A DNA stretch of 32,000 bases, taken from Candidatus Thorarchaeota archaeon. GTDB taxonomy: Archaea; Asgardarchaeota; Thorarchaeia; Thorarchaeales; Thorarchaeaceae. Below the pieces are notes generated by a model that was not told the origin of the DNA, did not search any database, and saw only the letters and a program-made list of their open reading frames with translations. The position numbers and the translations under genes are program-made. The stretch covers positions 82,003-114,002 of the forward strand of contig PRDJ01000036.1 of NCBI GenBank assembly GCA_003345555.1, written 5' to 3'. This document shows positions 87-18,086 of the stretch, in pieces (position 1 is the stretch's first letter; each line of letters opens with the position of its first letter).

Positions 87-782
87 ATGAGTTCCGAGAA
101 TGTCATCGACCTAGACTCTGTTTCGAAGATATACAGGATGGGTGAGATTAAGGTTCCAGCCCTAAGGGGCGTGTCGCTGAGGGTAAAGAGAGGCGCAGCA
201 ATTGGAATCATGGGCCCGTCTGGCTCGGGCAAGACGACTCTTCTCAATCTTATCGGCGCGCTCGACCGACCAACGGATGGACGGGTCACTATAGACGGCG
301 TGGACATTACACACATGAGCGAGAGCGAGCTAACACTCGTTAGAAGGAACAAGATATCGTTCGTGTTCCAATTCTTCAACCTGCTTCCGGTCTTGACAGC
401 ATACGAGAATGTCGAACTACCGCTGCTCATCAGTGGAGTCCCCGAAGTGGAGAGAAAGGAAAAGGTCGACCATCTGCTCGGACTGGTCGGTCTCACAGAG
501 AGAGCAGACCATAGGCCGGACGAACTATCTGGCGGCGAACAGCAGCGAGTGGCCATTGCTCGCGCTCTGGCGAAACCAAAAGGCACGACGAGTTCCGTTA
601 TCGTCTTGGCCGATGAACCAACAGGGGACTTAGACACGCTTACTGGCTCAGATGTCATGAAGGTACTAATCGATCTCACCAAAGGAGAAGGAGGAACTCT
701 TATCGTGGTCACGCATGACCCTGATGTTGGGAAACAGATGGATAAAGTCTACAACATGAGGGATGGCCGCATCGTCGATTAG
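87..782 (+). CDS. ABC transporter ATP-binding protein, LolD/MacB family
   Basis: Walker A GPSGSGKTT, Q-loop FVFQFFNL, signature LSGGEQQRV, Walker B/D-loop VLADEPTGDLD, H-loop VTHD. ATG at 87 preferred over GTG at 72 because of GGGGAGG 6 nt upstream. Confidence 0.95.
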   Translation: MSSENVIDLDSVSKIYRMGEIKVPALRGVSLRVKRGAAIGIMGPSGSGKTTLLNLIGALDRPTDGRVTIDGVDITHMSESELTLVRRNKISFVFQFFNLLPVLTAYENVELPLLISGVPEVERKEKVDHLLGLVGLTERADHRPDELSGGEQQRVAIARALAKPKGTTSSVIVLADEPTGDLDTLTGSDVMKVLIDLTKGEGGTLIVVTHDPDVGKQMDKVYNMRDGRIVD

Positions 783-790
783 CTTTCGGG

Positions 791-3616
791 GTGAGCACGA
801 CGACCGCAGCTCCAGCCGATTACGGGTTTGTGCACGATCTGAGAAGGAAAGCTATCACACTCGTGTGCTTTGTTCTCGCATCGACAATCGTAATGGGAAT
901 AGGTACCTACATAGATTCGACATCCGTACATGAATGGGACAAGACTACGGACATCGGGCCTTTTGCCATGTCAGTCAGCGTATACGACCCATACGCCGGA
1001 CCTAGTCTCCTAGAGACTCTTGGCACCATCAGAGGCCTGCCGGGGGTAGAAAGAGCGGCCTATCTCGAAAGGTCATGGGGAAGCTTGAGCATTGTCAATG
1101 AGACCTACTATACAGGATACTACGGAGAGATGGTTGGTCTGGATTCCGACTTTCTCACCGTCTTTCCGAATTCATACGTCCTGACCAAGGGTCGACTGCC
1201 AACGAATGTTTCGGAAATCGCGCTCTTTGTAGACGCCTCTCAAGCGCTTCACCTAAGTGTCGGGGACAAGGTGAACTGCACACTTCCTGACTCGTGGTCA
1301 ACTCTCAGTGTCGTAGGGGTCTTCTCCGTTCCAAAGGAGCTTTACAGCAGCTGGAGTTACTATTCGGAAGTAGCAATACTCGACAGAGGGCTTTTGCAGC
1401 AGGGCAGCATCGTGCCCATCGTCCTCCTCGATGTCAATAGAACACTTCTGAGCCCGTTTGACGCTAATGGCGCTTGGAACTATCTGTCTGGAATAGAGAA
1501 GAGCATTCGGACTCTTGATCCAAGCTACAATCCTCCCTCATCCTACTTCTCACGGTTCGTGGTGAACGACCCGCTAGCGAATGCGATTGCCTCTTTCATG
1601 GGTTGGAGGACGGGAATGCGGTTCACTGAACTGATAAGAGGAGGAGCAGTCGTGCTGCTTGTCGTTCTCACGATGTTCTTGGCCATTCGTTTCAACATGA
1701 ATGACCGACGATACGAAAGAAGCGTCCTGACATCAAGAGGAGCTTCGAAGTCTGACTTGAATCGCATGGTCATCAGAGAACTTGCAGGACTTGCGTTCAC
1801 GGGGTTAATCATTGGTCTTCTCTCTGGTGTGCTAATCAGCAGGGTGGCTAGTACAGCCACGGGCTTCTTTGAATTTGACCAAGCACGGCTGTGGAGTGAG
1901 CCATTCCTAGTGACCATAGAATCGATTGCGACTTCAGTTGTCTTGGGATTGGTGCTGCCTGCAGCGAGCTTTGTAGTCTACACCGCACTCTACTCAACGA
2001 AATTAACTGGCGAAGTGCAGAGAGGAAGGCTTGCCAAGATGGTAAGAGTGTTTGTTCTTCTCCGTTGGGATTTCGCTATTCTCGTACTTACCGGGTTAGT
2101 CATGTTTCTCACTTACACCGCAGGGAGTGCGGTGAAGACGAACCCGGTGCTAACAATCATGGGGCTCTTGTCACCTGTCATTCTGTTCATAGGACTCTCC
2201 AGTCTTACTGTCAAGGGGTTCAGGCGCGGCGCGAACTGGCTGTCACGCAGGATATCCAGGATTACGGGCGACTTACCCGCTTACGGTGTCAGGAGAATCG
2301 GCAAGGAAGCATCGTCAGCAGGAGTCATCGCGGTCATAATTGTGCTAAGTCTGACCATTGCCTGGGGTTACGCATTTGTTGGTACCTCGATACCGATGAC
2401 AAAGATCAACCAAGCAAGGCTTGCTTTCGGGGCCGACGTAACCTTCCACATCGACAAACTGTCGGCCGAAGAAAGAGGCGACTTCGTTAGTAACGCATCA
2501 CTCAATTCAGGGGTGGAGGCCGGAGCAAGTCTTTCTGTACTCAGTATGATGCTGTCGGCAAGTAGTTATGACTACGCAACTGCTGTGGCGATGAACCCTT
2601 CGGAATACTTGAAGGTAGGCTATGACTATGAGGGGACTCCGCTCGAATCCTCAGAGCTCAGACAGGCTATCGTCAGTCTCGAGTCGACTCCGAATGGGAT
2701 AATCATTAGTTCTGATATCGCCACCGAATATGAGCTGAATGTTGGAGACACACTTCGAACATCTTACGAAAGCACAAATGGCTCCAAGGTAATCATCTTC
2801 ATTATACTCGCAGTTACGCCTGCACTCAGTGACGCGCTTCTGCTTGACACTGGTTATGAGCAACCGTACTCAGGACCGATATACTACGGAGCGAACCCGC
2901 CCCCGTACGATTCATCGCCATACTACTACTGGCCATTCTATCAAGTCGGCAAGAACACAATGTGGACAAACGGACAGTATCTCTCAGAACAACTCAACCT
3001 CACGGAGGTTGGAGTTCACCTTTATTGTGTGCGGACCACGCCAGATGCAAATGCCACAGCAGTTGCCCAGGAGATTATCGGTTCTGCCTGGAACGATACA
3101 ATCGGCGATGATGATTGGGCCTCGGTCACAAGAGATCTGACCGGATACATGAATCAAGCTGAATACAGGATAGACCGCTCCATCGACACAATGTTCACCG
3201 TGTGCATGATTCTATCCATGTTTGCGGCTCTCATTGTTTATGCCGGAGAGGATGTTCAGGCACGCCGTCGGGAAGTAGCCCTGCTCAGGGCGATGGGGTC
3301 TGACAGTCGTCTGGTGGCCAAGGTGCAGGGAGCGGAAATGCTTGTACTCGCGTTTTCAGGCATCCTGTTGACCCTCATCTTCGCACCCATTCTCATATTC
3401 AATTGGCTTATGTTGTATAGTACCAGTTTCTATGTCTTCCCTGTCATTGTAACGCTCATCGTTCCTTGGTTACAGCTCACTATCATTCTTCTTTTGTTCG
3501 TAACTTCGATTACCGCTTTCATTGTGCTGGTGGCCATCTTCAGCCCAAGAATCAACTTGGCAGTATCGCTCAATGCGGCTTGGGCAGAAGCTAGCCCCTA
3601 CGGAGGTGAACTCTGA
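791..3616 (+). CDS. Large ABC permease with two FtsX/MacB-type halves (941 aa)
   Basis: Architecture TM - extracellular domain - 3TM, twice. FtsX-like motifs 'RRYERSVLTSRGASKSDL' and 'RRREVALLRAMGSDSRLV'. GTG start, flanked by ABC ATPases. Confidence 0.88.
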   Translation: MSTTTAAPADYGFVHDLRRKAITLVCFVLASTIVMGIGTYIDSTSVHEWDKTTDIGPFAMSVSVYDPYAGPSLLETLGTIRGLPGVERAAYLERSWGSLSIVNETYYTGYYGEMVGLDSDFLTVFPNSYVLTKGRLPTNVSEIALFVDASQALHLSVGDKVNCTLPDSWSTLSVVGVFSVPKELYSSWSYYSEVAILDRGLLQQGSIVPIVLLDVNRTLLSPFDANGAWNYLSGIEKSIRTLDPSYNPPSSYFSRFVVNDPLANAIASFMGWRTGMRFTELIRGGAVVLLVVLTMFLAIRFNMNDRRYERSVLTSRGASKSDLNRMVIRELAGLAFTGLIIGLLSGVLISRVASTATGFFEFDQARLWSEPFLVTIESIATSVVLGLVLPAASFVVYTALYSTKLTGEVQRGRLAKMVRVFVLLRWDFAILVLTGLVMFLTYTAGSAVKTNPVLTIMGLLSPVILFIGLSSLTVKGFRRGANWLSRRISRITGDLPAYGVRRIGKEASSAGVIAVIIVLSLTIAWGYAFVGTSIPMTKINQARLAFGADVTFHIDKLSAEERGDFVSNASLNSGVEAGASLSVLSMMLSASSYDYATAVAMNPSEYLKVGYDYEGTPLESSELRQAIVSLESTPNGIIISSDIATEYELNVGDTLRTSYESTNGSKVIIFIILAVTPALSDALLLDTGYEQPYSGPIYYGANPPPYDSSPYYYWPFYQVGKNTMWTNGQYLSEQLNLTEVGVHLYCVRTTPDANATAVAQEIIGSAWNDTIGDDDWASVTRDLTGYMNQAEYRIDRSIDTMFTVCMILSMFAALIVYAGEDVQARRREVALLRAMGSDSRLVAKVQGAEMLVLAFSGILLTLIFAPILIFNWLMLYSTSFYVFPVIVTLIVPWLQLTIILLLFVTSITAFIVLVAIFSPRINLAVSLNAAWAEASPYGGEL
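3602..3609 (+). promoter_or_regulatory. Shine-Dalgarno site GGAGGTGA for the second permease
   Basis: Perfect archaeal SD consensus 7 nt upstream of ATG 3617, lying within the end of the upstream gene. Confidence 0.75.
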
Positions 3617-12332: not shown

Positions 12333-12734
12333 ATGCCAAGAATAGCAGATATTGAAGGAATAGGTGCTTCATACGCTCACAAACTCAAGTCGGTCGGCAT
12401 AGCTTCTGTGGAGGCTCTGCTCAAGGCCGCCGCCTCTCCTAAAGATAGGGACGAACTGAGTAAGAAAATAGGGATACAGGCAAGCACTATTCTGGAATGG
12501 GCAAATCGAGCTGATCTGTTCAGGATCAAAGGGGTTGGCGCACAGTATTCCGATCTTCTTGAACAGGCAGGAGTCGATACTGTGGTCGAACTCTCAAAGA
12601 GAGTTCCAGAGAACCTGCACGAAAAGCTCCTAGAAGTGAACAAAGGCAAGAAATTCGTCCAGAGACCACCCTCCATCAAGGCCGTGCAAAGCTGGGTAAG
12701 TCAAGCCAAGAAGTTGCCTAGGAAGCTGGAATAG
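12333..12734 (+). CDS. DUF4332 family helix-hairpin-helix protein
   Basis: 'IEGIG..YA.KL..GI', 'WANRADLFRIKGVGAQYSDLLEQAGVDTVVELSKRVPENL', 'RPPS...V..W..QAK.LPR'. Confidence 0.85.
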   Translation: MPRIADIEGIGASYAHKLKSVGIASVEALLKAAASPKDRDELSKKIGIQASTILEWANRADLFRIKGVGAQYSDLLEQAGVDTVVELSKRVPENLHEKLLEVNKGKKFVQRPPSIKAVQSWVSQAKKLPRKLE

Positions 12735-14077: not shown

Positions 14078-17000
14078 TTACCGCATCTTGGCGAGTTCTT
14101 CTTCTCTAAGCTTCTTCTTGAAGAGCTTCATCACCATTGTCAAAGGCAATTGGTCCCTAAACTCTACCGATTTTGGAATGGCGTATGGCTTTACCTTGTC
14201 CTTCAGGTAGTCGATGATATCCTGCTCCGAAACCTTTCCTCTGTACTCTGGCTTTAGCTGGATGAACGCCTTTACCCTCTCGCTGCCGGGCCTTTCTGGG
14301 TCGGGAATGCCTATCACACCTGCAACATCAACAGCATGGTGCTCGTGAAGGATATCGTCGAGGACCCTGCTATACACCTTGTTGCCTGAGACATTTATCA
14401 TATCTTTCACCCTGTCCACGATTCTGAAGTAGCCGTCATTGTCCATCTCGACAATGTCTCCCATTGGCAGCCACCCGCCTTCCTTGAGCCCACTTCCAGG
14501 CACCGGCCAATATCCTCTCATGACTTGGGGACCACGAATCCAAATCTCACCTCGTTCATGGACTGGTAGCTCCTTGCCTGTGTCTGGGTCAACAATCTTG
14601 ACTTGTGTGTCAGGGACGGGAATGCCGACGCCCCTTTTCGTTTCAGCCATGAAACCTGTGACCTTGGATAGAGCTGATATGTTGATGGTCACGATTGCTG
14701 AAGTCTCGGTTGCACCGTAGCCCTCGCCCGTAGGTACTCCTGTTTTCTTCTCAAACTCCTCTGCAAGATTCGGCGGCAGCCCGGCCGCACCTGAGAAGTA
14801 GAAAATCTGCGCTTTCTTCAAATCCATCCTGCTGAGCATGGTGTAGTGAGCCGGCACCGCAAAAACAACGAAAGGACGTTGCCGGTTTATTATGTCGGCG
14901 ATTCTTGAGATGTCCCGCGGATCTACGAGGTATATCTTCATACCCCACGAGATGCACGCATGAACAGCCCAATGTCCGTACGCATGGAAGATGGGCACGC
15001 AAATGAGACCGGCGCTCTTACCAATGATTCCTTCCTTTAGCGGATCCATCATCCATTGGATTGATTGTATCACGGCACTTGTGATATTGTAGTGGGTCAG
15101 CATGGTCCCTTTTGGAAGTCCCGTAGTGCCGCCTGTGAAGGGCAGTAGGGCAATATCGTCACACGGGTGAATCTCCACTGTTTCTTGATGGGGCTCATGT
15201 TGTTCTATCAAGTCACTGAGAAGGAAGCAATCATCATCTTCAATCCGTTCCATTTCAGGGCGTTCATAGTCCGGGAATACCCTTGTAGGGGTATGGATGA
15301 CGACCCTTACGTTTGTCTTTGGCTTTACTCGATTTACTCTCTCCACGCGCCTGGATGAGCAGACCACGATTTGGGCCCTACTTTCTTTGAGTTCATGCAA
15401 CAAATCGTCTTCCTTATGCATAATGCTCAGAGGTACATGAATGGCTCCAATCTTCATCGCGGCATAATCGGTCATTATGAATTCAGGGCATGACGGCAAC
15501 ACTGTGGCAATTGCATCCCCTTTCTTCACACCGAGGGCTGCAAAAGCTGATGCAAGCTTGTCGACCTTCAGTCTCAACTCCCGATACGTGATATGCTCAT
15601 CCAAGTACTCACAGGCTTCAATGTCAGGGAACTCTCTTGCTGAGTCCTCTAGGAACTTGTAGATGTTCATCTGAGGATAGGGAGCCATCGAATGCTTGAG
15701 CTTGAAAGGACCTATCTTGTAGCCGTTGAGCCAGGGTCTGTCGCCAACGACTCCGACTGATGCTGCTGGTACAGCTCCCGCTGTTTCATTGTCGGAGGTA
15801 GCAACCTGCTTCATTTGTGCCCCTGTAGTTCCTCTCCCAAAACCCCCGTATTCAGGGATTGAACCAGCTACCCATTCCAGACCGAGTTCCTTCAGTTTCT
15901 CTACGGTGGGTCTTCCTTGGCTGTCCCATCCACGATACTTGTAGTATGCGTCCAAGAGAACCTCCAAGTTCACAACATGCCCTTTTGCCGGCCCTTCAGG
16001 CATTGGGTCCTCTAACAGCCGTGGAGGTAAGGTGTCATCTTCCCGTGTGAATCCTTCTCTCAGAATGTATGCCCTCTCTAGGTTGTAAATCCGTTCACCT
16101 GTTTTGCGAAAGTCATCTGCAGAGAATTCATAGCCCATCAAAGTGGAGATCAATTTCGCCCAGTCTTCAGAAGTGAGCACCATCCCCATGAATTTACAGC
16201 CGCCAATGGCATCAAAAATGCCAAGTGCGTCCTCGAAATTCTTGACGACTAGTGCTATCTCCGGAATTTCCATTAGCGGGTCGCCCACATCTGCGTTCTC
16301 GACAATCATGAAAGGCATAGCAAGGAAAGCAGGTCCCTCGATGTATGCTGTGATGTGGTCCCCGCCGCGGTTGGCAACAGCATAGGCAAGTCCTGTTATC
16401 TTAGCAGCTCTGCTGTCATAACCCGGAAGCTCTAGTCCCTTGACATGCATAGCAAACCTCTCGGACCCATTGCCCAGCTTGTCAGCTATTCTCATTGTCC
16501 CCTCAGCAAGAAGGTTACCAATCCCCTCACGTCTTCCAATCTTGTGAACAATGTCAACTATGAGTTGCGCATTTCCCCAGGAGAAATCCATGCCGTCAAG
16601 ATCCTCATGTTTCAGAATGCCGCGTTGGTAGCACTCCATGGCAAACCCGACGGTGTTCCCTGCGGAGATTGTATCAATGCCGTATTCATTGCACAGGAAG
16701 TGTGCGAGTGTGATTGCTTCTAGGTTGTCTACATCACACATGGTCCCAAATGAGCTAAGAGTTTCATATTCTGGACCTTCTCCTTTGCTCTTGAATGGTC
16801 CCTCCCTAATCTCAGATACTCTCCCACAATGGATAGGACAAGAGAAGCATGGCTTTCGCTTCACCAGGATGCTGTCATTGATTGCTGTTCCGTTGATCTT
16901 CTCTGCATTCTCAAAGACACCAGTCTGCCAGTTTCGGGTTGGGATGCCTCCCTTAACATTGACCAAGTCAACCATCGTGGCTGTTCCATAGACCTCAAGG

Positions 17001-17719
17001 GTCATCTTCAGGAGGCTCTGATTCACCCAGTCGAATCTTTGCTTTGCCTCCTTTCTGTATGCATCAGGGTCTGCAATGGGGATCTCTAGCGTCCCCCTTG
17101 ATGCGATTGCTTTGAGATTCTTTGAACCCATTACTGCTCCAACGCCACACCGACCAGCTGCGCGTCCCCAGTTTTCTTCATCACAATCATTCATGATGGC
17201 TGCGTACCTTACGAGATTCTCTCCTGCAATTCCAATGCAGGCAACATTGAACTTTGACCCATGCTTCTCCCTGAGGAGTCTTGTTGTTTCGGATGTGTTT
17301 TTTCCCCATAGCTCTCCTGCATCTAGTAACTCTGCCTTTCCATCGTCGGTTAGGAGATAGACTGGTTTGGGCGCTTTCCCCTCAAAGATTAGCCCGTCAA
17401 AACCGGAGCGCTTGAAATCTCTTCCCCAGAAACCTGCTGAGTTGGCCTGACCCCAACCGTTTGTAAGGGGCGACTTTGTCACCACGCTATATCGTCCAGT
17501 GCTTGGCGAACTGGTTCCCGTGAGCGGCCCGGTCATGAAGATGAGCTTATTCTCAGGTCCTAGTGGATCGATGCCTTTCTCTGTCTCCTCAATGAGTATC
17601 TTTGTGGCTAGCCCTGCTCCTCCGAGGTACTTACGTAGGGTTTCCTCATCAGGAAATTCCTCGGTTATTGTGGAAGTGGCCAGGTTAATTCGCAGGATTC
17701 TACCCATGTAGCCATACAT
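14078..17719 (-). CDS. aor: Fusion protein: N-terminal tungsten-type aldehyde:ferredoxin oxidoreductase (about 617 aa) plus C-terminal AMP-forming long-chain acyl-CoA ligase (about 578 aa)
   Basis: AOR part: 'YGYMGRILRINL', 'KSPLT', 'AGRCGVGAVMGSKNLKAI', CFSCPIHC, GPEYET, 'EYGIDTIS', 'NRGGDH', 'DAIGGC', 'Y..RGWD..GRPT..KL.ELGL'. Ligase part: 'FTGGTTGLPKG', 'GYGATE', 'GEIWIRGPQVMRGYW', 'MGD', 'DRVKDMI..SG..VY'. No stop between the two parts. ATG 17719 preferred over TTG 17743. Confidence 0.9.
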   Translation of the reverse strand: MYGYMGRILRINLATSTITEEFPDEETLRKYLGGAGLATKILIEETEKGIDPLGPENKLIFMTGPLTGTSSPSTGRYSVVTKSPLTNGWGQANSAGFWGRDFKRSGFDGLIFEGKAPKPVYLLTDDGKAELLDAGELWGKNTSETTRLLREKHGSKFNVACIGIAGENLVRYAAIMNDCDEENWGRAAGRCGVGAVMGSKNLKAIASRGTLEIPIADPDAYRKEAKQRFDWVNQSLLKMTLEVYGTATMVDLVNVKGGIPTRNWQTGVFENAEKINGTAINDSILVKRKPCFSCPIHCGRVSEIREGPFKSKGEGPEYETLSSFGTMCDVDNLEAITLAHFLCNEYGIDTISAGNTVGFAMECYQRGILKHEDLDGMDFSWGNAQLIVDIVHKIGRREGIGNLLAEGTMRIADKLGNGSERFAMHVKGLELPGYDSRAAKITGLAYAVANRGGDHITAYIEGPAFLAMPFMIVENADVGDPLMEIPEIALVVKNFEDALGIFDAIGGCKFMGMVLTSEDWAKLISTLMGYEFSADDFRKTGERIYNLERAYILREGFTREDDTLPPRLLEDPMPEGPAKGHVVNLEVLLDAYYKYRGWDSQGRPTVEKLKELGLEWVAGSIPEYGGFGRGTTGAQMKQVATSDNETAGAVPAASVGVVGDRPWLNGYKIGPFKLKHSMAPYPQMNIYKFLEDSAREFPDIEACEYLDEHITYRELRLKVDKLASAFAALGVKKGDAIATVLPSCPEFIMTDYAAMKIGAIHVPLSIMHKEDDLLHELKESRAQIVVCSSRRVERVNRVKPKTNVRVVIHTPTRVFPDYERPEMERIEDDDCFLLSDLIEQHEPHQETVEIHPCDDIALLPFTGGTTGLPKGTMLTHYNITSAVIQSIQWMMDPLKEGIIGKSAGLICVPIFHAYGHWAVHACISWGMKIYLVDPRDISRIADIINRQRPFVVFAVPAHYTMLSRMDLKKAQIFYFSGAAGLPPNLAEEFEKKTGVPTGEGYGATETSAIVTINISALSKVTGFMAETKRGVGIPVPDTQVKIVDPDTGKELPVHERGEIWIRGPQVMRGYWPVPGSGLKEGGWLPMGDIVEMDNDGYFRIVDRVKDMINVSGNKVYSRVLDDILHEHHAVDVAGVIGIPDPERPGSERVKAFIQLKPEYRGKVSEQDIIDYLKDKVKPYAIPKSVEFRDQLPLTMVMKLFKKKLREEELAKMR

Positions 17720-17758
17720 TGACGTGGATCCCTTTCCGTTCAAGAACTGGAGTCAGAC

Positions 17759-17801: not shown

Positions 17802-18086
17802 ATGAAGGTAAAGGTGAGGTTCTTCGCGCATCTTCGTGAACTAACGGGCAAGAAAGTAATCAATGAGGTCGATTGCGAAGAAGGAGCTACCATCTCGATG
17901 CTCCTGGATTGGCTATCCCTAAACTCGAGAATGAAGGATGTTCTGTTCGACGAGAATCAGAGAATCAAGCCCGACATAACTATCCTGAAGAATGGCAGAG
18001 AGATAAGACTCCTAGAGGGTATGCAGACCAAGCTGCATTCAGGAGATGAAATAGCCATTTTCCCCAAGGTTGTCGGTGGGCAATAG
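17802..18086 (+). CDS. moaD: MoaD/ThiS/SAMP-family ubiquitin-like sulfur carrier
   Basis: 'MKVKVRFFAHLRELTG', 'ILKNGREI..LEG..T.L..GDEIAIFP.V.GG'; SD GTGAGGAG at 17789-17796; adjacent to a pterin enzyme. Ends GGQ-stop. Confidence 0.85.
   Translation: MKVKVRFFAHLRELTGKKVINEVDCEEGATISMLLDWLSLNSRMKDVLFDENQRIKPDITILKNGREIRLLEGMQTKLHSGDEIAIFPKVVGGQ

Follow-up and report, generated by a model that had tools for sequence, protein, structure and literature searches.

Why a predicted tungsten-dependent aldehyde oxidoreductase and an acyl-CoA ligase should be encoded as one polypeptide is the question raised by a gene of a Candidatus Thorarchaeota archaeon (assembly GCA_003345555.1). The gene lies at positions 14078-17719 of a 32,000-nucleotide stretch of contig PRDJ01000036.1 (positions 82,003 to 114,002), referred to hereafter as the window. 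An original prediction, made from the letters of the window, had proposed that the protein oxidises aldehydes and passes the resulting acids on as CoA thioesters. Comparison of the sequence with its relatives and their surroundings led us to favour a bifunctional enzyme that would convert a hydrophobic alcohol or aldehyde, by way of the acid, into an acyl-CoA, a reading to which a probability of about 0.55 was assigned.

The fusion gene and its two halves

The frame of 1213 codons announced by the original prediction was found uninterrupted, on the minus strand of the window; the translation of the plus strand over the same interval is riddled with stops. The longest open frame on the minus strand extends slightly further (14078-17743, TTG start, 1221 aa, uninterrupted). 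The ATG at 17719 is taken as the conserved start and the upstream in-frame TTG at 17743 is probably unused, since orthologues begin with MYGYMG and the AOR (aldehyde:ferredoxin oxidoreductase) of P. furiosus likewise begins with MYG. Only four Pfam families were found in the protein (Table 1), and neither a carrier (PCP) domain nor an NAD-binding reductase domain is among them. They bear out the earlier description of a full AOR joined to a full adenylate-forming ligase. The motifs on which that description had been based (CFSCPIHC, EGPEYET, NRGGDH and DAIGGC) were all recovered in the translation, as was the Gly/Ala/Thr-rich linker, which comprises about 40 aa rich in Gly, Ala, Thr, Ser and Val. 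Every cofactor and catalytic residue that was checked is present, and each half looks complete as a catalyst.

The N-terminal half is predicted to be a canonical single-subunit tungstopterin/[4Fe-4S] aldehyde:ferredoxin oxidoreductase. Among solved structures, its best match was P. furiosus AOR (1AOR, 551 bits), followed by FOR (391 bits), WOR5 (282 bits) and BamB (226 bits). This ranking, which is one of PDB match scores and not a tree, assigns it to the AOR-proper type, nearer to AOR than to FOR, WOR5 or BamB, and the half is about 50% identical to AOR proper from end to end. The [4Fe-4S] ligands C291, C294, C298 and C508 align with C288, C291, C295 and C494 of the P. furiosus enzyme, and E319 and H455 are the equivalents of its catalytic Glu313 and His448. 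The pterin-contact residues R76, N93, R186, D349, D503 and C508 are kept as well; they correspond to the 1AOR motifs R76, N93, R182, DxxGxD and DxxGxC, which we take to be the pterin-binding ones. Fe-S ligands, Glu313/His448 equivalents and pterin contacts were invariant across 37 fused and split orthologues.

The first Asp of pterin motif 1 is replaced by Asn344 (the position of P. furiosus Asp338), a replacement also found in several ordinary AOR paralogues of the same genome. It belongs to a signature of the ligase-linked AOR subfamily, which carries Thr at Lys450, Asp or Cys at Cys447 and Asn at Asp338 (P. furiosus numbering), together with a five-residue insert after Asn177-Asp178. The three signature positions vary too among the ordinary AOR paralogues of the genome, and on this comparison the substitutions are not read as inactivating.

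The C-terminal half is predicted to be a FadD-like AMP-forming acyl-CoA synthetase. It opens with a conserved N-terminal segment, PWLxxYxIGPFKL, and the core motifs of the ANL fold (TGGTTGxPKG, GYGxTE, GD and DRxKD) are invariant in the family together with the C-terminal Lys1198, the residues concerned being T862-K870, E999-E1005, D1088, R1103/K1105 and K1198. Its closest solved relative is A. fulgidus FadD-1 (PDB 3G7S). The top NCBIfam models are those of long-chain fatty-acid CoA ligases; other top matches comprise medium- or long-chain fatty-acid, feruloyl- and 4-coumarate-CoA ligases.

Some relatives of either half occur in other arrangements. The AORs next nearest to the AOR half (P0053-P0100, 42-50% identity) measure about 830 aa and are encoded in metagenome-assembled genomes (MAGs) of Methanomethylicaceae, Nezhaarchaeales and Promethearchaeota. 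They are fused to a domain of the 3-hexulose-6-phosphate synthase/OMP-decarboxylase type (PF00215 and others), which suggests an AOR fusion for the handling of formaldehyde. A stand-alone homologue of the ligase half (locus L008, 441-2102, 52% identity) has an in-frame stop within the conserved N-terminal segment and is followed by a gene of the ADP-forming acyl-CoA synthetase type (CoA_binding and Succ_CoA_lig).

Recurrence of the fused form and its origin from gene pairs

The fused architecture was encountered in more than 30 protein clusters from Thorarchaeota MAGs (78-91% identity) and in four clusters from Hodarchaeota (62-64% identity). It was also present in GTDB species genomes, including a Thorarchaeota record titled 'chromosome' (CP070658.1). 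Since more than 30 clusters and genomes, independent of one another, show the same fused frame, an assembly artefact can, from these records, be excluded as the cause of the fusion. In public annotations, the protein appears as 'aldehyde ferredoxin oxidoreductase C-terminal domain-containing protein' or as 'hypothetical'. Among the best 150 protein representatives, no further protein was found to match both halves, a weak negative as the family's own representative was also unlisted there, although the sister database contains many members of the family.

Members of the two subfamilies in question, AOR (68-77% identity) and ligase (59-70%), were found as adjacent, co-directional but separate genes in other Asgard lineages, through a search of 400 Asgard genomes, a scan of named genomes and a search for shorter proteins. 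These lineages are Promethearchaeia (Loki-type), Heimdall-, Hod- and Hermodarchaeota and a second Thorarchaeota clade. At lower identity (AOR 49-62%, ligase 43-49%), the adjacent pair extends to Bathyarchaeales and to bacteria. Among the latter, the records carry the labels Thermodesulfobacteriota, Desulfobacteraceae, Desulfobacula, Desulfarculales, Syntrophaceae and other Deltaproteobacteria-type MAGs, as well as Chloroflexota (Anaerolineae, Ardenticatenales), Actinomycetota and Spirochaetales. The order is aor then ligase, with gaps of about 0 to 250 nt, and one metagenomic contig has the stop of the AOR gene overlapping with the start of the ligase gene (TAATG). The functional aor-ligase link claimed by the original prediction is thus supported by a gene pair that stays adjacent in Asgard archaea, in Bathyarchaeales and in many anaerobic bacteria and that has become fused twice.

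A concatenated tree of 81 pairs was rooted on 19 bacterial pairs. The Asgard sequences formed one clade (support 100), in which split Thorarchaeota and Promethearchaeia forms were the sister group of the fused Thorarchaeota (16 rows, 100), and the fused Hodarchaeota (6 rows, 99) were nested within split Hermod- and Heimdallarchaeota forms. Forcing all fused forms together yielded a tree 357 log-likelihood units worse, and a single fused clade was rejected by the approximately unbiased (AU) test (p = 1e-45). Additionally, the linkers of the Thorarchaeota and Hodarchaeota fusions differ in length and share no sequence. Taken together, the rooted tree, the AU rejection and the unrelated linkers indicate that the split state is ancestral and that at least two independent fusions occurred.

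In the split sister clade of Thorarchaeota (about 70% identity), the two frames are in register, and in three of six loci (L024, L025 and L028) a single stop stands between them, so that one point mutation could fuse the genes. Fusion in one Thorarchaeota lineage would have come about through the loss of a stop and a short spacer between adjacent, co-transcribed aor and ligase genes. The linker sits where split forms have their intergenic spacer and is the sole hypervariable stretch of a 37-sequence alignment whose mean column identity is 83%. The fusion appears to be a late and probably easy event, and not one that function requires, because the next clade and most other lineages keep two genes. 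The original prediction had regarded two separate genes in all close relatives as evidence against it, which was borne out in part: the nearest ones are fused, and the next clade and most lineages are split.

Two candidate explanations concerning the junction were discarded. Selenocysteine or another form of recoding was rejected, since the in-frame TGA, TAA and TAG codons in full-length genome matches all fell within the linker (query positions 617-648); stops confined to the junction indicate that those loci are split genes in the same frame. Likewise, G350 and G173 were rejected as fused forms, both being split despite a large open-frame length.

Neighbouring genes, proposed reaction and rival explanations

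Three plus-strand genes face the fusion gene across a divergent region of 82 bp (Table 1). The 157-aa product of the second one is an SCP2-family member, as judged from profile and model. Its single-sequence match to Pfam SCP2 was below threshold, and a 22-sequence profile matched T. thermophilus SCP2 (1WFR/2CX7) with E 1.5e-27. Its AlphaFold2 (AF2) model (pLDDT 89) matched 2CX7 with E 2e-11, about 30% identity and TM 0.85 (target-normalised). The pattern WxxxY...WEG...HGxC is common to this protein and T. thermophilus SCP2 TT1886 (1WFR/2CX7); the presence of the same motif there led to rejection of the His-Gly-x-Cys as a thiol or metal site specific to the module. This SCP2 homologue is the most constant neighbour, being found in most Asgard loci with enough flank, in variable position and orientation, and it adjoins the pair in Bathyarchaeales and several bacterial loci too. 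The third gene encodes a 136-aa protein conserved in Thorarchaeota and some Promethearchaeia loci, and all top PDB matches of its model were SCP2 or UbiJ-SCP2. No profile similarity between the two SCP2-fold neighbours was found, and their putative kinship rests on the fold only. A predicted complex of the AOR half with the SCP2 protein received a score of 0.01, which counts neither for nor against an interaction.

Table 1. Features of the fusion gene and of the genes facing it, in window coordinates
Feature	Residues	Position	Strand	Basis or remark
AOR-acyl-CoA ligase fusion gene	1213 aa + stop	14078..17719	minus	stop codon 14078-14080; start ATG at 17719
AFOR_N domain	6-210	17090..17704	minus	Pfam E 1.6e-78, profile positions 1-199 of 199
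AFOR_C domains 2 and 3	237-614	15878..17011	minus	Pfam E 2.8e-139, profile positions 16-385 of 385
Inter-enzyme linker	about 620-658	15746..15862	minus	low complexity, hypervariable in alignment
AMP-forming acyl-CoA ligase half (predicted)	659-1213	14081..15745	minus	Pfam and motifs
AMP-binding domain	690-1071		minus	Pfam E 3.3e-86
AMP-binding_C domain	1121-1194		minus	Pfam E 1.3e-12
MoaD/ThiS-like small protein		17802..18086	plus	PF02597, E 1.3e-12; ends GGQ
SCP2-fold carrier protein (predicted)	157 aa	18165..18638	plus	22-sequence profile and AF2 model
Second SCP2-fold protein (predicted)	136 aa	18659..19069	plus	no Pfam match; AF2 pLDDT 87

The first facing gene encodes a MoaD-like protein, and such a gene stands beside the aor/ligase pair in many loci. 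In most module orthologues GG forms the very C-terminus, and a few extend further; the protein of the window ends in GG-Q and its closest relative (L010) in GG-R. The extra residue may represent a capped C-terminus or tolerated drift.

Beyond the window, an Fe-type alcohol dehydrogenase (Fe-ADH) belongs to the cluster in Hod-, Heimdall- and Hermodarchaeota and Bathyarchaeales loci. A GMC flavoprotein, unrelated to Fe-ADH, lies directly upstream of AOR in four deltaproteobacterial loci, in three of which the ligase is followed immediately by an SCP2-like gene. In five further bacterial loci, with the labels Actinomycetota, Thermodesulfobacteriota, Desulfarculales and Pseudomonadota, SCP2 genes come before the pair, joined in four of them by an Fe-S protein. 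In three of the five, the ligase is followed by two genes of the HGD-D family (L091, 6611-9144; L092, 6720-9297; L097, 6584-9111), the family of 2-hydroxyacyl-CoA dehydratases and benzoyl-CoA reductases. In the Actinomycetota locus, an acyl-CoA dehydrogenase is found upstream of the pair. The genome to which the window belongs (2.3 Mb) has ten AOR-family genes; the nine besides the fusion (27-41% identity) are unfused, and so are four further stand-alone ligases. It also has four acyl-CoA dehydrogenase genes, one aldehyde dehydrogenase family gene and, elsewhere, two Fe-ADH genes.

These data are best accommodated by a pathway in which a poorly water-soluble aldehyde, often made from an alcohol by a neighbouring or distant alcohol dehydrogenase, would be oxidised to the acid at the tungsten site, with ferredoxin taking up the electrons. 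The acid would then be adenylated and thioesterified by the tethered ligase, and the acyl-CoA would enter CoA-dependent catabolism, the genome having acyl-CoA dehydrogenases. The hydrophobic substrate is probably kept in solution or handed over by one or two SCP2-fold proteins, and the MoaD-like protein probably serves pterin cofactor supply. Consecutive action of both enzymes on one substrate is the best-supported interpretation, because their adjacency is fixed across two domains of life and because two independent fusions occurred. The oxidative direction and a hydrophobic substrate are both favoured: SCP2-fold carriers point to a poorly soluble compound (fatty, isoprenoid or bulky aromatic), and non-homologous alcohol dehydrogenases upstream together with CoA-ester enzymes downstream point to the oxidative order. 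Coupling would probably be achieved by proximity and stoichiometry and not by a structured tunnel, since the tether is hypervariable and about 40 residues long and most organisms use two proteins.

Regarding the original prediction, the conversion of aldehyde to acyl-CoA is retained in part: the functional link stood and the oxidative direction is favoured by neighbours that handle alcohols and acyl-CoA, whereas substrate and direction are still proposals. Physical channelling between the two sites was not supported, the linker being a hypervariable tether and most relatives consisting of two proteins. The 'mirror image' of carboxylic acid reductase (CAR) energetics found no support either.

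Several points weigh against the proposed pathway. The hypervariable linker and the two-protein lineages argue that fusion adds little beyond stoichiometry and proximity, and within the window the fusion has no alcohol dehydrogenase, ferredoxin or beta-oxidation gene next to it. The ligase half stays below every curated NCBIfam cut-off (best PRK06187, 366.7 bits versus 476); it is therefore not an equivalog of a characterised ligase from which a substrate class or chain length could be read. Nor can the direction be deduced from the neighbouring genes. Some anaerobes operate AORs and Fe-ADHs in the reductive sense, and the reaction of AMP-forming ligases can go either way. Moreover, the oxidative route costs two ATP equivalents versus none for a CoA-acylating aldehyde dehydrogenase, an expense without clear benefit unless low-potential ferredoxin is the goal.

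Since the architecture suits both directions, the module could instead serve as a fermentative electron sink. The ligase would convert acyl-CoA, AMP and PPi into acid and ATP, the AOR would reduce the acid to the aldehyde with reduced ferredoxin, and an alcohol dehydrogenase would complete the way to the alcohol. The Fe-ADH genes beside the module in Hod-, Heimdall-, Hermod- and Bathyarchaeal loci are typical of alcohol-forming fermentations. Acetogens use AOR reductively to make ethanol, Syntrophus aciditrophicus makes ATP via an AMP-forming acetyl-CoA synthetase, and Asgard archaea are energy-limited syntrophs needing electron sinks. However, the GMC flavoprotein dehydrogenases found upstream in four bacterial loci normally oxidise alcohols. 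The HGD-D and acyl-CoA dehydrogenase neighbours suggest that the CoA ester is consumed as an intermediate and is not the source. In addition, long hydrophobic substrates, as suggested by the SCP2 carriers, would be unusual end products of a fermentation, and archaeal ATP from acyl-CoA is usually obtained via ADP-forming synthetases. This reverse use is possible but rather unlikely.

It is very improbable that the ligase activates an acid for a tungsten site that acts on the acyl-adenylate or acyl-CoA, either by reducing the thioester to the aldehyde (at about -400 mV rather than -580 mV) or by reducing another part of the CoA ester. An adenylating domain tethered to a reductase does follow the logic of CAR, BamB is an example of an AOR-family enzyme working on a CoA ester, and residues next to the catalytic His are specific to the subfamily (Asp or Cys at Cys447; Thr at Lys450). 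The original prediction had itself regarded the BamB-like option as the weaker one, and our data agree: BamB is the most distant solved relative, AOR proper is about 50% identical over the full length, and the aldehyde-oxidation residues, including the Glu313/His448 equivalents, are invariant. A carrier domain is lacking, the Lys450 equivalent also varies in ordinary AOR paralogues of the genome, and we know of no AOR that reduces thioesters. A slightly smaller chance still is given to the idea that the tether serves an ATP-driven, ferredoxin-dependent carboxylate reductase, in which the acyl-adenylate or acyl-CoA made by the ligase would be reduced to the aldehyde. If true, this tungsten analogue of CAR would remove the -580 mV barrier to the reduction of free acids, by a reaction that no AOR is known to carry out. 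Finally, the two halves might use unrelated substrates, their fusion being a neutral read-through of neighbouring genes. The in-register frames of the sister clade, one point mutation away from fusion, and a linker in which no sequence constraint is visible are compatible with this. Yet the same AOR and ligase subfamilies stay adjacent across two domains of life while their flanks change, the fusion arose twice and persisted through many species, and the other AOR-family genes and ligases of the genome are unfused, their neighbourhoods not having been examined; a chance association is accordingly held to be most improbable.

Relation to known systems and further observations

Neither the enzyme kinds nor their reactions are new; what is new is their fixed partnership, together with the carrier and the single-chain form. 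A full-text literature search, in which subscription journals were not covered, brought up no account of the fusion or of the gene module. The AOR half has the three-domain build, the four Cys ligands and the Glu313/His448 equivalents in common with P. furiosus AOR (1AOR) and other AOR-proper enzymes (9MQX, 9G7J and AorB of Aromatoleum aromaticum, 8C0Z). Those enzymes are stand-alone proteins of about 605 aa or a subunit of AorABC, and none has a ligase, whereas the window protein carries one. Likewise, the two-domain ANL fold signature and all core motifs are common to the ligase half and FadD-type synthetases (3G7S; PRK06187 and related), the difference being that the window ligase is tethered N-terminally to an AOR.

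A metabolic precedent is provided by Aromatoleum aromaticum, in which phenylacetaldehyde is converted to phenylacetate by AOR and then to phenylacetyl-CoA by a CoA ligase, that is, in the same order and by the same enzyme families as proposed here. To our knowledge, that route uses separate proteins and does not involve a fixed gene pair with an SCP2 carrier. CAR also unites an adenylate-forming domain and an aldehyde/acid redox domain in one polypeptide. However, the window protein has the opposite domain order, no phosphopantetheine carrier and no NAD(P)H reductase domain (Pfam), and its redox cofactor is a predicted tungstopterin/Fe-S system, with a likely oxidative direction. BamB, the tungsten subunit of class II benzoyl-CoA reductase (4Z3W), resembles the AOR half as an AOR-family fold acting downstream of a CoA ligase; with its 226 bits over a partial alignment it is the lowest-scoring solved relative, and the residues for aldehyde oxidation are retained in the window protein.

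Tungsten AORs count among the oxidoreductases of anaerobes that are most numerous and least understood, and most of them have not been assigned a substrate or pathway role. For one AOR subfamily, the fixed AOR-ligase-SCP2 partnership seen in Asgard archaea, Bathyarchaeales and several bacterial phyla provides a concrete pathway that can be tested. If true, the proposed function would mean that alcohols and aldehydes of fatty, isoprenoid or aromatic nature have a further, oxygen-independent route of oxidation in anoxic sediments, and it would bear on the feeding of Asgard archaea on lipids. The single-chain form represents a handy construct for expression and for tests of proximity coupling. 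It would also be of interest for biocatalysis, as the interconversion of aldehyde, acid and CoA ester would, in that case, be available in one protein.

Other genes were noted around the module or elsewhere in the genome. Various flanking genes (tRNA synthetases, TBP, DUF4332, an alpha/beta hydrolase, HAD hydrolases and transporters) were rejected as module parts, not being conserved with it. A DUF4332 (helix-hairpin-helix) gene is located just downstream of the fusion both in the window (12333-12734, plus strand) and in another Thorarchaeota locus (L002, 11688-12440), and is absent from most loci. One AOR paralogue of the genome (C1:72158-73969) has an Fe-ADH gene (C1:74642-75139) at a distance of about 0.7 kb. 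In four bacterial loci (L092, L094, L097 and L109), a large Fer4 protein is encoded before AOR, and in L097 its N-terminus resembles SCP2. In Hod- and Heimdallarchaeota, a small stand-alone protein of 110-127 aa, with a match to only the N-terminal domain of HMG-CoA reductase (PF25653), is conserved near the module (L001, L003, L030, L032, L039, L040, L059, L080, L081 and L098).

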